Source of the DNA: a virus
Taxonomy: Duplodnaviria > Heunggongvirae > Uroviricota > Caudoviricetes
IMG/VR virus record: IMGVR_UViG_2703719347_000008
DNA: 16,756 nt
Reading direction: 5' to 3' (one strand)
The notes under the pieces were generated by a model. The model made no database searches, was not told the DNA's origin, and worked only from the letters and a program-made list of their open reading frames with translations. Shown here piece after piece: positions 8,751-14,306 of the stretch. Position numbers and translations under genes: made by a program. Position 1 is the stretch's first letter; each line of letters starts with the position of its first letter.

Positions 8751-8781
8751 AAACCCGCCAATGAGCGGGTTTTTTTATTTT
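8751..8781. terminator. Bidirectional rho-independent terminator (tR'-like for Q side; also terminates the convergent minus-strand gene)
   Basis: Stem ACCCGC (8753-8758) / GCGGGT (8765-8770) with 6-nt loop, flanked by an A-rich run upstream and TTTTTTATTTT (8771-8781) downstream; lies between the two convergent genes. Confidence 0.65.
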
Positions 8782-9371
8782 ACTAACTGAGCAATCATTG
8801 ATTGATAAGCACAATAGGAACCATAAGCAAATATGAAGATGGAACCGGCGCCGCATATACAAGCTACAGCATTTATTGTATGCCCGAGCCAAAGATAAAA
8901 TTTTTTGGTTCCAAGATATGATGATGCGAAGCAGCACTGTGAGAAATAGGATAAGCCCGAACAAAGTCCGGCCAGAACGACTCCTCCACAGAAAAGATAG
9001 AGAGCTGATGCGATAGCAGACGCAGCTTCAGCTGAGGAATTCTTGTTCCAAATATTTCCTAAAAAAGCCAACAGAGCGATTGCTGCACCTCCATTCATTA
9101 TTAGAAATGTTCTGCAAGCATTCGCACCAATACTGATAGCAGCTTTGAAAGACTCTATTTGAAAGCTATTTTCAATTTTCATTATTTCCAATTGGGTGGA
9201 GTTTTGATGTTTAATCCCTTCGAGAGTTAAAGCATTAGCCTCTGGCTGCTCTGTCACATCTATTTCTGAAAGATAGTGAAGTAAATTATCGACCGGGATG
9301 GTTTCTGAACCTTGTTGCTTTACATCACTTACATCTTTTTTGATCAATTCCAAAAGTTCTGAACTGGTCAT
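8775..9371 (-). CDS. Hypothetical membrane protein (N-terminal soluble domain, about 3 C-terminal TM helices); AT-rich moron
   Basis: ATG at 9371 preceded by GGAGCAAGAA (track's 9440 start is TTG with no Shine-Dalgarno); C-terminal hydrophobic stretches IALLAFLGNIW, ASALYLFCGGVVLAGL, AVACICGAGSIFIFAYG; about 35-40% GC by spot count of one 60-nt line against 55-60% in neighbours; antisense to the late transcript. Confidence 0.6.
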   Translation of the reverse strand: MTSSELLELIKKDVSDVKQQGSETIPVDNLLHYLSEIDVTEQPEANALTLEGIKHQNSTQLEIMKIENSFQIESFKAAISIGANACRTFLIMNGGAAIALLAFLGNIWNKNSSAEAASAIASALYLFCGGVVLAGLCSGLSYFSQCCFASSYLGTKKFYLWLGHTINAVACICGAGSIFIFAYGSYCAYQSMIAQLVK

Positions 9372-9500
9372 TTCTTGCTCCAGTGTTAAATCGAACGTAA
9401 AGATCCTAAGTATACCCTTAGAAGTACATACGGTATTCAAGTAAATAGAATTTATCTTTCCCCTCGATTGAGAGGACTCACAGCAAAAAGAGGGGGCTAA

Positions 9501-10794: not shown

Positions 10795-11103
10795 ATGCAA
10801 CTGAAAATATGTGTGGTCGCTTTTGCGCTTCTTCTTTCTGCGTGTGATGCCAGCCCTGAACCTGCCAAATCGACTATGGCTGTATCATCCCAACTTTCTG
10901 CAGATGCAGACCGGATTAGCGTGACAAAAATGTCTGAGTTCCGCGATGGGCTTGCATATGGAAATTGGCGGGGTGTTTATCTCATTCAGGATAAGCAGAC
11001 CGGACAGGAATACATCGGTATCAGCGGTATTGGGATTTCCGAGGTAGGTTCGCATAGCCAGATGGTTGGCAAGGTTCCGCAATCAGTAAGGGATGAACGA
11101 TGA
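10795..11103 (+). CDS. Lipoprotein of unknown function in the lysis cassette (predicted inner-membrane retained)
   Basis: Signal peptide MQLKICVVAFALLLSAC with canonical lipobox L-S-A-C and Asp at +2 (CDAS); start is 2 nt after the endolysin stop; ATGA overlap with the next gene. Confidence 0.6.
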   Translation: MQLKICVVAFALLLSACDASPEPAKSTMAVSSQLSADADRISVTKMSEFRDGLAYGNWRGVYLIQDKQTGQEYIGISGIGISEVGSHSQMVGKVPQSVRDER

Positions 11104-11375
11104 GCTTAGAAATTATTGCTGGGCTGGTGGTCGTAATCCTGGGCACTATCGCTGGTGCATTCGGCATTGGTCACGCTCGCGGGACCAATAAGGCGGAAGC
11201 CAAAGCCGATCAGCAACGTACCGAAGAAAACGCCGCCGCCACCATCGCCGCGGCAGAACGTAAGGCGGAAGTTGTGAAAGGGGCCAGTAATGTACAGCAG
11301 ACTGTTAGCCATATGCCTGATGACGATGTTGATCGGGAGCTGCGCGAAAAGTTTACCCGCCCCGGTAGTCGTTGA
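11100..11375 (+). CDS. i-spanin-like protein (Rz-like; N-terminal TM plus charged periplasmic helix)
   Basis: N-terminal TM LEIIAGLVVVILGTIAGAFGIG followed by Ala/Lys/Glu-rich segment; 3' end overlapped in +1 frame by a lipoprotein gene, the classic Rz/Rz1 arrangement. Only 91 aa, shorter than typical Rz. Confidence 0.5.
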   Translation: MSLEIIAGLVVVILGTIAGAFGIGHARGTNKAEAKADQQRTEENAAATIAAAERKAEVVKGASNVQQTVSHMPDDDVDRELREKFTRPGSR

Positions 11376-11508
11376 TACGGCCTGCAGCTGGGTTCGCATT
11401 ATCTACCTGACCGACCACGATATCGACGTGCTGGATAGGCAGACCAAGCGCGACATTCTAACCCACAACAGAACAGTTAAAAGAAACTGTAACCAACTAA
11501 AAATGTGA
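11290..11508 (+). CDS. o-spanin-like outer-membrane lipoprotein (Rz1-like)
   Basis: Signal peptide with lipobox LIGSC followed by Ala at +2 (outer-membrane sorting), Pro-containing mature region with Cys residues; overlaps the i-spanin-like gene out of frame; AAAGGGG Shine-Dalgarno. Confidence 0.45.
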   Translation: MYSRLLAICLMTMLIGSCAKSLPAPVVVDTACSWVRIIYLTDHDIDVLDRQTKRDILTHNRTVKRNCNQLKM

Positions 11509-11520
11509 CGCAAGTCCCAA

Positions 11521-11597
11521 TTATCCATTGCGTTGCTAAGTGTTACAAAATCCATTGAATTATGATGTGTGTTTACACTCACATAGCAATGGATATT
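11521..11597. promoter_or_regulatory. Repeat-flanked promoter region of the AT-rich four-gene cassette
   Basis: TTATCCATTGC (11521-11531), ATCCATTGA (11550-11558) and inverted copy GCAATGGATAT (11587-11597) bracket candidate -35/-10 elements (TTTACA 11572-11577, 17-bp spacer, ATTTAT 11595-11600) immediately before the first cassette gene. Confidence 0.35.
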
Positions 11598-11598
11598 T

Positions 11599-12213
11599 AT
11601 GGCTACTTACAAATATTATAATATACAGATGCTACCTCTAACCAATAGTAAAAAACATATTGGTAAAGAGGGTTATATTAAATTATTCCAGCATCTGGGA
11701 GACAAACTTCGCAAAGTTTTGTCATCGGAAGGTGATTTAAGAAATATCGCTGTTCCATTGAGGAATGATTTCTTTTTTGCTCCGTATGAAATAAATGCTA
11801 GAGAGGACATGGTTTATGGTCGTTTTTTAAAGTTTGACAAGGTAGATGTTGTTAGAAAAACTATTAGCAGAGTTCAGACTTATGCAGCTGGTTTTGGCGA
11901 GTCTAGTAAGATTTATGAGTATAGGTTTGTATTTGATCCTGTATTGCATATCCTTGCTATCGAAGATAGCCCTTCATTACCTAGCGCAAGTGTTTTATAT
12001 AAGGTGCTTAATGAGGTGTTTAAAGATGCGCGCAGGAAATTATATCCATCCTTTCGCATGAGTGTTGATGAATTAACATCTTCTGCTAGTCTAGATAATG
12101 TTATAAAAGAGTCTAAAGGATATTATTCCTTTAAAACAGAAATAACTTTCTCTAACTCTAATGATTTTATTGAAGGACTAGAAGAATTGCTAGAGGGGTT
12201 GAGGCTGAAATGA
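11599..12213 (+). CDS. Hypothetical cytoplasmic protein (204 aa), cassette gene A
   Basis: AT-rich ORF (about 28-30% GC by spot count of one 60-nt line); no Walker, HEPN, nuclease or HTH motif recognisable; stop overlaps the start of gene B (ATGA). Confidence 0.6.
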   Translation: MATYKYYNIQMLPLTNSKKHIGKEGYIKLFQHLGDKLRKVLSSEGDLRNIAVPLRNDFFFAPYEINAREDMVYGRFLKFDKVDVVRKTISRVQTYAAGFGESSKIYEYRFVFDPVLHILAIEDSPSLPSASVLYKVLNEVFKDARRKLYPSFRMSVDELTSSASLDNVIKESKGYYSFKTEITFSNSNDFIEGLEELLEGLRLK

Positions 12214-12533
12214 AAGATAAAGGGATTGATAAGCTGGAGCATAAAGAGTCATCAGACAAAGACTCAATAATGACTGACGTTAGTACAATCGCGTTGGTTT
12301 ATGCAGGTTTATCATGCAAGTTTGGGAATACTGAAATATCTTATAAAGACAAAAGCAATAAGAAAAAAGTTTTCAAAATGGCCGATTATCCTGTAAGAAA
12401 ACGTGTGTCTGAGTCTATGAAAAAAAGGGCATCAATTTTAGACTATTATTATGATGTGAAAAACACAATTAATGCAGCTAATAATGAGTCCAGAACAGGA
12501 AGTGGATTGCTAAAGAAAATTAGAAAAGGATAG
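12210..12533 (+). CDS. Hypothetical Lys-rich small protein (107 aa), cassette gene B
   Basis: GAGG Shine-Dalgarno; translationally coupled to genes A and C (1-nt gap to C); one short hydrophobic segment TIALVYAGLSCKF. Confidence 0.55.
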   Translation: MKDKGIDKLEHKESSDKDSIMTDVSTIALVYAGLSCKFGNTEISYKDKSNKKKVFKMADYPVRKRVSESMKKRASILDYYYDVKNTINAANNESRTGSGLLKKIRKG

Positions 12534-12534
12534 T

Positions 12535-13164
12535 ATGATGAAAGTTGGTGGATGGGACATTAATCATGAGAATATACTTAAAATAATTAAGTCTATTCCA
12601 TATGTTGGTGCAATTTTTATCATTGCCAACTTTTATGCTAATTCTGGAGTTTTATCAGAAAGGAAGCGAATTGCAAATTTCAAAAATTGGGTGCGGAGGG
12701 TACTTTCTGGTGTTTTATTTACTTTTGTTTTAAGTTTGTTGATTGTGACATTTTTCAGAGATGGGCTTTACAATCCCAACTCAAACACTGCAGGTCTCGA
12801 CGCAACCCTTGTTGCTTTATCCATATTTCCGAGCATATTAGGTTTTGGCATTGGTGTGTTTGTTGTTGTTTTTGCCCTTCCGAATCAATTCATTGAGAAA
12901 ATAAATCTTATCAAACATAACGGTAAAAATAAAACATTTGGCGCATCGTTAATGGTTGTCGATATGGCTTATCCTCTAATGGTATATGCTGTTGTCCTGA
13001 TGGGTGAGTTTTTTCTGAAACTATTCCAGGTTGGGTTTATTACACATGTGTTGAGTATCTTTTTATTATTATATGGAATGCTGATGACTTTTGATTTAAT
13101 ATCTATGATTTTCATGACAGCGTATGCGCTTTTAGCTACGCAAGCATCAAGAAACCCTAAATAG
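12535..13164 (+). CDS. Hypothetical polytopic membrane protein (about 5 TM), cassette gene C
   Basis: AAAGGA Shine-Dalgarno; five long hydrophobic segments, e.g. VLSGVLFTFVLSLLIVTFF and ITHVLSIFLLLYGMLMTFDLISMIF; no known motif. Confidence 0.65.
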   Translation: MMKVGGWDINHENILKIIKSIPYVGAIFIIANFYANSGVLSERKRIANFKNWVRRVLSGVLFTFVLSLLIVTFFRDGLYNPNSNTAGLDATLVALSIFPSILGFGIGVFVVVFALPNQFIEKINLIKHNGKNKTFGASLMVVDMAYPLMVYAVVLMGEFFLKLFQVGFITHVLSIFLLLYGMLMTFDLISMIFMTAYALLATQASRNPK

Positions 13165-13297
13165 TAGTATTTTTAGTTCGTTCTTTGGCTCAATGATTTT
13201 GTCGATACAGCAGCCAAGTTCGATAACTAAAGTAATCAATAGAGAATCTTTGCAGTGTGTCAATAAAACGTAGGAAAGGTAAGTTAAGGCACTGCAG

Positions 13298-13733
13298 TAT
13301 GCAAATACTGGTTGTTTGTGATATGTTTAACTACTTGCACACAATCAGGTCGTTAAATATGGGCGAATATATAAGCGCTACTATTACTGGATTATGGGAA
13401 TGCTATTTGTCATGGTCCAAACAGAATCGAGAGCTAACATTATCCAAGTTGGAAGCGCTATCAAATTTATTGATAGATAATCGGGCCTACCTGAGGGATT
13501 TCGCACACCAAGGTGTTAAAGACGCTCAAAGGGAACTTGAACTTGCAAAGGAGTGGAGGCGTGTCGGTCTCTTGTTTCAAGATATTTCTCCTGAGTTGTC
13601 AGACATATGTGAGAAGAAATCAGACTACTGGATATATTCAGAACGATATACCAAGCAGAAAGTTAATGAGCTAGGGATAACAATAAGAAATCTCGAACAT
13701 AAGCTAAGAATGGCAAAGAAAAACCTTCTATAG
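13298..13733 (+). CDS. Hypothetical helical protein (145 aa), cassette gene D
   Basis: Same strand and AT-rich composition as A-C; ATG at 13298 preferred (AAGG upstream) over the track's GTG at 13257; followed by a strong terminator. Start uncertain. Confidence 0.5.
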
Positions 13734-13752
13734 AATCCCTTTGTAATTTATG

Positions 13753-13784
13753 AAAGCCACCTTTTAAACGGTGGCTTTTTTATT
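13753..13784 (+). terminator. Rho-independent terminator closing the AT-rich cassette
   Basis: Stem AGCCACC (13755-13761) / GGTGGCT (13770-13776) with 8-nt loop followed by TTTTTTATT. Confidence 0.7.
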
Positions 13785-13793
13785 GGAGTGAAT

Positions 13794-14084
13794 ATGGCGT
13801 CAAGTTCACCCTGGCATCATCTCTATAACACTAAACGGTGGTACCGGCTGCGTTATCACCAGCTTCAGAAGCAACCACTCTGCGAGTTTCACCTCAGGCG
13901 AAATCAGGTGATATCCGCAACCGTTGTTGATCACATCAAACCTCACAAGGGCGATGAAACCCTCTTCCACGACCCGAACAATCTTCAGTCGCTATGCAAG
14001 CGCTGCCACGACTCGGTTAAACAACGCATGGAGAAGGGCGGAACGGTTACCGAGTTCGACAATGAAGGCAGGGTTATCTGGTAA
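13794..14084 (+). CDS. HNH endonuclease (terminase-associated)
   Basis: ATG at 13794 with GGAG 6 nt upstream; motifs CEFHL...VDHIKPHKGD...NLQSLCKRCHDSVK are the HNH Cys/His pattern; located just upstream of small and large terminase genes as in HK97-like phages. Confidence 0.8.
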   Translation: MASSSPWHHLYNTKRWYRLRYHQLQKQPLCEFHLRRNQVISATVVDHIKPHKGDETLFHDPNNLQSLCKRCHDSVKQRMEKGGTVTEFDNEGRVIW

Positions 14085-14096
14085 CAGGAGCACGCA

Positions 14097-14306
14097 ATGC
14101 AAGACCTGAAGATTGAATACCAGGATGGCAAGCTGGTGGAGCTGAGCATTGATGGTATGAGCTTTCTTTCTGCATCCGCCATATCCTTCAGTCATACAGC
14201 AAAAGAGACGCTACCAACGATCATCCTGACAATGTCTGTCGGTGTCGGTGAGCGCCTGGTGTTACCCAGTCCTCCCCGTGAAAACCTGCGGATCATCGAG
14301 AAATGA
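14097..14306 (+). CDS. Hypothetical small protein (69 aa)
   Basis: AGGAG Shine-Dalgarno 7 nt upstream of ATG; no recognisable motif. Confidence 0.4.
   Translation: MQDLKIEYQDGKLVELSIDGMSFLSASAISFSHTAKETLPTIILTMSVGVGERLVLPSPPRENLRIIEK

Follow-up and report, generated by a model that had tools for sequence, protein, structure and literature searches.

[quoted passage not shown] How prophage abortive-infection genes stay silent yet ready, and how they spare the phage that carries them, is poorly understood. Among bacterial promoters, the class I CRP-dependent type has its CRP site centred near -61.5, -71.5, -82.5 or -92.5 from the transcription start; in lac P1, the model of the type, the centre is at -61.5 (the Busby and Ebright model). 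In the locus described here, a mobile Rex-like moron of two genes occupies a variable slot between lysis and packaging genes. Its promoter and leader are best placed in the interval 11504-11598, and the conserved protein site of that interval is, by prediction, a CRP-type palindrome.

The window, meaning the whole stretch of 16,756 nucleotides that was analysed, is the late region of a lambdoid prophage and holds holin and endolysin genes, the i- and o-spanin genes, a low-GC segment, an HNH endonuclease gene, and the terminase genes. The i-spanin is encoded at 11100-11375, and the o-spanin, an Rz1-like lipoprotein with a lipobox-type N-terminus in its translation, at 11290-11508 on the plus strand (PHROG 'Rz-like spanin', E 2.5e-32). 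The low-GC cassette that follows has a GC content of 33-36%, compared to 50-55% in its flanks. Its first gene, at 11599-12533 on the plus strand, encodes a DUF4747 protein (Pfam PF15931, E 8.4e-25) that is 311 aa long in relatives. Here, the gene is split into 204- and 107-aa portions by the apparent loss of one nucleotide from a run of G at 12195-98, while nine of ten E. coli copies are intact; the 204-aa ORF that the first-pass annotation had taken for the first cassette gene is present, but is the front portion of a frameshifted 311-aa gene. The second gene, at 12535-13164 on the plus strand, encodes a 209-aa membrane partner with 4-5 hydrophobic membrane-spanning segments by hydropathy, whereas the DUF4747 protein itself has none. 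The partner gene follows the DUF4747 gene in all loci, and we infer a RexB-like role for its product.

Database searches added little to these assignments. The partner protein has no Pfam match, the PHROG families of the cassette proteins are of unknown function, PADLOC 2.0 returned no match for either protein, and a PDB sequence search found no relative. An AlphaFold2 model built from a 5-sequence alignment was unusable (pLDDT 38.5). Searches of Pfam and PHROG, at the level of sequence, recognised neither a helix-turn-helix nor any other DNA-binding domain in the cassette proteins.

The cassette is absent or present between related phages, and is also found in other phage and in non-phage contexts with its upstream region attached. 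Ten complete E. coli genomes carry identical copies of the cassette together with this region, and cassettes that are ~80% identical at the protein level are found in prophages whose lysis and terminase modules differ from those of the window, as well as in a non-prophage Serratia locus. A profile protein search returned only a sister clade (~34% protein identity), with nothing intermediate to the window's clade. The comparison with a cassette-free relative that the first-pass annotation had proposed places the boundaries at 11470 and 13269, the points at which homology with the closely related Klebsiella phage ST101-KPC2phi6.3 stops, inside the o-spanin gene, and restarts; in another E. coli prophage the same slot is filled by different small genes. 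The core that is common to cassettes in different contexts extends from about 11530-44 to 13158, and by eye the shared part reaches back through the palindrome into a decayed spanin 3' end. Cassettes in other contexts keep remnants of the spanin 3' end, which points to spanin genes having recombined by homology, and not to a site-specific insertion.

The suggestion that the region upstream of the cassette is its place of regulation has held up well. The region is a 90-nt gap between the o-spanin stop codon (11506-08) and the cassette ATG (11599), and was compared amongst twelve distinct versions of the interval that align without gaps from the palindrome to a -10-like hexamer. These represent 10-11 diverged cassette lineages in addition to the window's own lineage, whose members are >93% identical. 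A conserved non-coding block at 11533-11570 (plus strand) is 66-79% identical between lineages, compared to 31-46% identity at the four-fold degenerate sites of the adjacent gene, which are saturated. The block is therefore under purifying selection, and is a candidate core promoter and/or 5' leader.

Upstream of this block is a strandless, CRP-type palindrome, TGTGA-CGCAAG-TCCCA, at 11504-11519, which matches the core at 9/10 positions. Its centre at 11511.5 is 87.5 nt upstream of the ATG, and the o-spanin TGA (11506-08) lies inside its left half. A match to TGTGA-N6-TCACA, the consensus of enterobacterial cAMP-CRP, is found with no more than one mismatch in every cassette lineage and in a 40% identical metagenomic homologue (L019), with its centre 85.5-91.5 nt before the ATG. 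Lineages L020 and L003 match the core at 10/10 positions, and 10/10 sites within one mismatch of TGTGAT-N4-ATCACA fall at this one spot in 306 kb of fetched loci, where ~0.7 are expected. Across lineages the half-sites are kept while the six central bases are free to vary. The window and L020 match at only 10 of 29 positions over 11504-11532, and nine of those ten belong to the half-site cores, the only portion of this stretch in the window's lineage that still matches relatives. The window's own palindrome is the most degenerate in the family (TGTGAC...GTCCCA, 9/12 extended positions), and a Salinivibrio homologue (L029) with only half a CRP site was treated as uninformative. The palindrome had been overlooked in the first-pass annotation.

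Downstream of the palindrome, on the plus strand, is the -10-like hexamer TATGAT (11561-11566), which reads TAAGAT, TATGAT or TAAAAT among relatives and has a weak PWM score. The distance from the palindrome centre to the first base of the hexamer is 49.5 nt, without gaps, in all 12 lineages, and the L019 homologue independently has TGTGATTATTATCACT and TTAACT-17-TAAAAT at the same offset. If TATGAT is the -10 element, the predicted CRP site would lie at -61.5, which fits a class I promoter with a predicted start near 11573. The -35 element of such a promoter is poor, and its PWM score is low. An alternative promoter, with ATCACA as -35 and TAAACT as -10, would start near 11549; it is compatible with four lineages, and some lineages suit it at least as well as the class I arrangement. 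The candidate -35 and -10 elements that had been placed between the repeats fall below the threshold of a consensus scan, which found no promoter-like match on the plus strand in 11509-11598, and promoter-like matches across the region are at chance level (10, with 8.7 expected). A simple promoter does not account for the conserved spacer TATAAAATCC, which might be bound by a protein. A second strandless palindrome, TGTGT-TTACAC-TCACA at 11568-11583, is specific to the window's lineage, being absent in relatives, whose spacing differs at this point.

The repeats that first drew attention to the interval share an exact 8-mer, ATCCATTG, at 11523-30 and 11550-57 on the plus strand and at 11587-94 on the minus strand. 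All three copies lie inside 75 bp of the 90-nt gap, with centre-to-centre spacings of 27 bp between the direct copies and 37 and 64 bp between the inverted ones. Copy 1, TTATCCATTGC, is at 11521-11531 on the plus strand, and forms the 5' arm of an outer inverted repeat of 13 nt (11519-31 with 11586-98) that is complementary at 12/13 positions and whose 3' limit abuts the ATG. Copy 2, ATCCATTGA, at 11550-11558 on the plus strand, is the complement of the ribosome-binding region and a candidate anti-Shine-Dalgarno sequence; with copy 3 it forms an arm pair of 11 nt, 10/11 of them complementary (11547-57 with 11587-97). Copy 3, which lies on the minus strand and reads GCAATGGATAT on the plus strand, holds the sole Shine-Dalgarno-like bases, GGA at 11591-93, 5 nt ahead of the ATG. 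The first two copies, the near-exact reverse complementarity of the outer pair and the weak Shine-Dalgarno sequence, for which this GGA is the only candidate, are thus as the first-pass annotation described them. The third 11-mer, however, is at 11586-96 rather than 11587-97, and the gene begins 2 nt, not 1 nt, after it.

The triple repeat is only moderately beyond chance. The 8-mer occurs nowhere else in the 16.7-kb window, where 0.65 copies are expected, and at least three copies were obtained in 5 of 200 shuffles. In block-wise Markov simulations over the whole window, which allow for the whole window having been scanned by the reader, some non-trivial 8-mer appeared three times within 100 nt in 199 of 2000 simulated windows (10%), and in 88 of 2000 (4.4%) such a triple also included, as here, a pair extended to 10 nt or more, making the repeat a 4-10% event.

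Comparison amongst lineages separates the copies from one another. Copy 1 is absent from all cassettes outside the >93%-identical lineage (L003-L006, L011, L012, L017, L020, L024 and L026), sits in a stretch that is variable across the family (alignment indices 19-28), and within the window's own lineage has already acquired a point mutation, to ATCAATTG in L010. Copy 2, which is contained in the conserved block together with the -10-like hexamer, reads ATCCATTA or ATCT(A/G)ATG in relatives, and copy 3 reads CATGGAT or CAATGG(A/G)T in all of them; only ATCCA/TGGAT is common to the two copies across lineages. The absence of the repeats from related cassettes, which had been named in advance as evidence against an operator or a scar, is therefore found for copy 1, and in part for copies 2 and 3. 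In the sister clade, ATGGA is present 13-15 nt upstream of the ATG with no upstream ATCCAT, suggesting that the sequence of copy 3 is set by translation initiation and not by a palindromic operator. Taken together, the repeats look like a lineage-specific quasi-palindrome around a ribosome-binding site, neither a conserved operator nor a scar of insertion.

At the level of RNA, the copy 2 segment AAAUCCAUUG is complementary to the ribosome-binding region directly before the AUG. The whole interval, in which copy 1 pairs with copy 3, has a predicted folding energy of -26.9 kcal/mol (z = -3.07, with none of 200 shuffles as stable), and the hairpin of copies 2 and 3, which has the second palindrome at its apex, one of -15.7 kcal/mol (z = -2.98). 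The predicted pairing probability of the Shine-Dalgarno window is 0.82, compared to 0.59 for shuffled leaders, only 2% of which reach 0.82. The register of a 10-bp helix is kept in all three sequence groups, with 82% of cells paired as opposed to 27-49% when the register is slid; because the sequences are related to one another, the persistence of this pairing counts as weak evidence. Six cells are changed in the 5-bp ATCCA/TGGAT core, and all six still pair through one-sided changes to G-U. RNAalifold and pair counting detected no compensatory double changes in the helix of copies 2 and 3 amongst these related sequences, for which a shuffle control was uninformative. In most relatives the ribosome-binding site is not significantly occluded, a fraction of 0.11-0.51 of shuffles being at least as paired, and occlusion is not general in the sister clade. 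A search of Rfam with 11300-11800 gave nothing above threshold, the only hit being a chance snoRNA match of 22 bits against a gathering score of 55. A consensus scan found no terminator-like sites in 11000-14200. With no terminator from the lysis genes to the cassette, and with the terminase genes downstream on the same strand, Q-dependent late read-through across the cassette is expected.

The reading that we prefer, at a probability of roughly 0.4, is that the interval serves as a promoter-leader under CRP control, and that in RNA the Shine-Dalgarno region could pair with copy 2 or, in this lineage, also with copy 1. Host cAMP-CRP at the palindrome, in the class I, lac-like position at -61.5, would drive a weak promoter with a start near 11573. 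The ATCCATTG copies would then not be protein sites, copy 3 being the translation-initiation region and copy 2 (with copy 1 here) its complement. An RNA that holds both arms would fold into a hairpin that buries the Shine-Dalgarno bases, and could originate by read-through from the upstream Q-dependent late operon or from the alternative start near 11549. Such a hairpin would limit how much is translated of a defence pair that could harm its own host cell, and in read-through RNA it would spare the phage from making the pair while it grows lytically. A transcript that starts inside the hairpin, at about 11573, would be without the 5' arm and so present a free ribosome-binding site. Copy 1 would most likely be recent, either favoured because it lengthens the stem or produced by template switching at a quasi-palindrome. 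An abortive-infection pair could be toxic, and it is plausible that this one is tightly controlled, as had been suggested from the weak Shine-Dalgarno sequence.

A somewhat unlikely alternative is that the repeat has no function. The ribosome-binding region would determine the sequence of copy 3, and the conserved promoter or leader block that of copy 2; their 5-8 nt of complementarity would be incidental, and copy 1 would have arisen without selection in an unconstrained segment, by chance or by a templated quasi-palindrome mutation. The simulated frequencies of 10% and 4.4%, the position of copy 1 in a family-variable segment and its mutation in L010, the complete lack of covariation in the helix, and the insignificant occlusion in most relatives all speak for such an origin. 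On the other hand, an exact 10-mer complement of the ribosome-binding region would hardly appear in a diverged segment of ~25 nt unless it was templated or selected, the interval is much more stable in folding than its shuffles (z about -3), and the helix register is kept in all lineages. Should the promoter-leader reading fail, the repeat would be a lineage-specific curiosity of no consequence.

A further possibility, which we regard as rather doubtful, is that promoter choice acts as a translation switch that insulates the abortive-infection cassette from the phage's own late transcription. In Q-antiterminated late RNA that reads through the spanin genes, the 75-nt quasi-palindrome would fold, with copy 1 or 2 paired to copy 3, and hide the weak Shine-Dalgarno sequence, so that the phage would not produce the Rex-like pair as it grows lytically. 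The cAMP-CRP promoter (start about 11573) would leave the ribosome-binding site open when the lysogen is short of carbon. If transcription does start at about 11573, the hairpin could form only in read-through RNA, which would make it an effect of promoter choice rather than a sensor.

Also to be weighed is a DNA operator, as the first-pass annotation had suggested for a dedicated regulator, with a repressor acting on the ATCCATTG sites that is encoded elsewhere in the phage or by the host, or is the DUF4747 protein itself. Three exact copies do flank and overlap the conserved promoter block, copies 1 and 3 are 64 bp apart on roughly the same helical face and could loop out the promoter, and conservation like that of the sequence around copy 2 (TATAAAATCC) is not what the spacer of a plain promoter usually shows. 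Moreover, RexA of lambda and RexA of P. putida bind DNA, albeit non-specifically (PMC11077077, PMC12894663). A three-site operator is nonetheless improbable, and several lines of evidence disagree with it. Copy 1 is missing from all diverged cassettes, and copies 2 and 3 share only their 5-bp core. Spacings of 27, 37 and 64 bp do not suit dimeric half-sites, which are about 10-21 bp apart from centre to centre. The cassette encodes no regulator, in that a DNA-binding domain is not recognised in the sequence of either protein. The motif is found nowhere else in the prophage, immunity region included. Finally, copy 3 is the ribosome-binding region, and its core is kept in the sister clade without a partner site.

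That the repeats are a scar of the insertion event, as a target-site duplication, terminal inverted repeats or att-like sites left by a delivering element, is extremely improbable despite their position near the left edge of a low-GC cassette, because no copy of the motif lies at the right end (13158-13269) to match the three within 75 bp at the left, cassette-free homology ends about 50 nt upstream of copy 1 and inside the spanin gene, spanin 3'-end remnants accompany cassettes in other contexts, and no recombinase or transposase was found near the cassette.

A number of other assignments for elements in the interval were considered and set aside. The repeats do not resemble the operators of the prophage immunity region (TTGCG...CGCAA), from which the motif is absent. 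By eye, TTATCCA matches a DnaA box, TTATCCACA, at only 7/9 positions, and in copy 1 only, and the IHF consensus does not fit. An invertible promoter was rejected on account of the 54-bp segment between the arms, which is too short, and the lack of an invertase, and an intrinsic terminator for want of a T run. An upstream ORF beginning at the ATG in ATGGAT has no Shine-Dalgarno sequence, and in the sister clade it does not stay in the same frame with respect to the main ORF. In type III toxin-antitoxin systems, the toxin gene is preceded by tandem direct repeats, each about 35-45 nt long, which are conserved along with it; here there are only two 21-nt units, 71% identical, and the 5' unit is absent in relatives.

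The sister clade provides an additional perspective on the CRP-wired promoter-leader that we favour. LexA boxes are found in 10 of 13 sister-clade loci, compared to none of the 11 loci of the window's clade, suggesting that the regulators to which the DUF4747 family is habitually connected are global ones of the host, not dedicated ones. The two clades of DUF4747 cassette are thus predicted to carry operator sites for different host global regulators, of CRP type here and LexA in the sister clade. If this is true, DUF4747 defence cassettes would be self-contained units with portable operator sites for host global regulators, and in the window's lineage one small interval would both respond to host CRP and, through its RNA fold, prevent read-through late transcripts from being translated.

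Compared to the described systems, the elements of this locus belong to known kinds. In common with class I CRP promoters, the interval has a 16-bp TGTGA-N6-TCACA palindrome with A/T-rich flanks at a fixed 49.5 nt from a -10-like hexamer, and the poor -35 in the window is what would be expected of an activator-dependent promoter. It differs in that the window's site is degenerate, the spacer between -35 and -10 is unusually conserved, and the right half-site is possibly itself a -35. Similarly, the leader is like hairpins that occlude ribosome-binding sites, such as the ROSE and FourU thermometers and toxin-gene leaders, in that AAAUCCAUUG could pair with the Shine-Dalgarno region and the predicted stability is well beyond that of shuffles; unlike them, it has neither an Rfam match nor covariation.

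The cassette genes, a putative exclusion pair, match the Rex-like systems of Sbash, CarolAnn and Butters in the order of a cytoplasmic DUF4747 protein and then a multi-pass membrane protein, and in being prophage-borne and of low GC content. The likeness to lambda is more distant. No homology to lambda RexA was detected, as RexA matches PF15969 only and not DUF4747 in current Pfam, and hhalign against the family profile gives a probability of 0.2%. Lambda RexB has 144 aa and four segments, compared to 209 aa and about five hydrophobic segments for the cassette partner, and lambda rex is in the immunity region under PRM, whereas the cassette in the window is in a late operon between spanin and terminase genes. 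With regard to lambdoid morons, which are autonomous transcription units added between conserved genes, the cassette is unlike them in having no terminator-like structure after it and a left junction inside the spanin 3' end. It is like them in its presence or absence in homologous phages, its deviant composition, its own upstream regulatory region, and its location in a variable slot after the lysis genes.

Upstream of every DUF4747 cassette in the window's clade lies a conserved CRP-type palindrome, TGTGA-N6-TCACA, which is held at a fixed spacing from the -10-like hexamer. The palindrome is found at 11504-11519 of the window, where it overlaps the stop codon of the o-spanin gene, and at L020 2963-2978, L003 3902-3917, L017 1219-1234, L019 127-142, and L026 2965-2980 among the fetched loci that carry related genes. 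The copy at 11504-11519 was absent from the first-pass annotation. A second CRP-like palindrome, TGTGTTTACACTCACA (11568-11583), is found in the window lineage only, and it both forms the apex of the hairpin made by leader repeat copies 2 and 3 and covers the predicted start site. A third CRP-like site, TGTGACATTTTTCAGA (12744-12774), is located inside the membrane-protein gene and overlaps the region's best plus-strand promoter-like match (GTGACA-18-TACAAT, 10/12), an arrangement that, judged by sequence, recalls an internal promoter.

The regulatory elements upstream of the sister-clade DUF4747 genes, which are about 34-36% identical and come from Serratia, Buttiauxella, and IMG/VR prophages, are of another kind. 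Exact LexA/SOS boxes (CTGT-N8-ACAG) are positioned 101-146 nt 5' of the ATG in 10 of the 13 sister-clade loci (L031 1765-1780, L032 1874-1889, L034 1882-1897, L035 1892-1907, L036 1847-1862, L038 1850-1865, L040/L041 1885-1900, L049 1892-1907, and L051 1891-1906), and in none of the 11 loci of the window's clade. Because of these boxes, SOS-inducible expression is predicted for the sister-clade genes.

The leader also includes a 10-codon upstream ORF (11589-11631) that begins at the ATG within ATGGAT and overlaps the main start out of frame; no Shine-Dalgarno was found ahead of it. Its +1 offset to the main ORF is retained in the window's clade (10 or 13 nt) but not in the sister clade. A 12-mer, CATTGAATTATG, found in the window leader (11553-11564), recurs in the leader of one sister-clade cassette (L040, about 1920-1935); the match could be coincidental or could mean that the two leaders are deeply homologous.

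The DUF4747 gene of the window is split into 204 and 107 aa by a frameshift, with one G lost at 12195-12198 (G4 vs G5 in E. coli genomes), representing either real decay or a homopolymer sequencing error; the gene is likewise shortened, to 261 aa, in E. coli 5CRE51 (L055). Downstream of the cassette, a 158-aa ORF of PHROG 28881 (unknown function; 13257-13733) has no annotation in the E. coli copies of RefSeq; it lies outside the cassette, since it is also present in the cassette-free Klebsiella phage. A second low-GC segment (8775-9440, minus strand; 38-43% GC), with a 221-aa minus-strand ORF, has the DUF1133/Q-like gene on one side and the holins on the other and is probably another moron; GhoS-like genes (L004) or HicAB genes (L005) occupy the corresponding place in relatives.

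In the Serratia locus L003 (3460-4000 and 6175-8591), the cassette is located outside any prophage, yet the 3' end of an o-spanin gene persists upstream of it in decayed form. Next to this cassette are a gene for a LacI-family regulator and a pair of AAA_15/AAA_21 ATPase genes, surroundings that possibly constitute a defence island.
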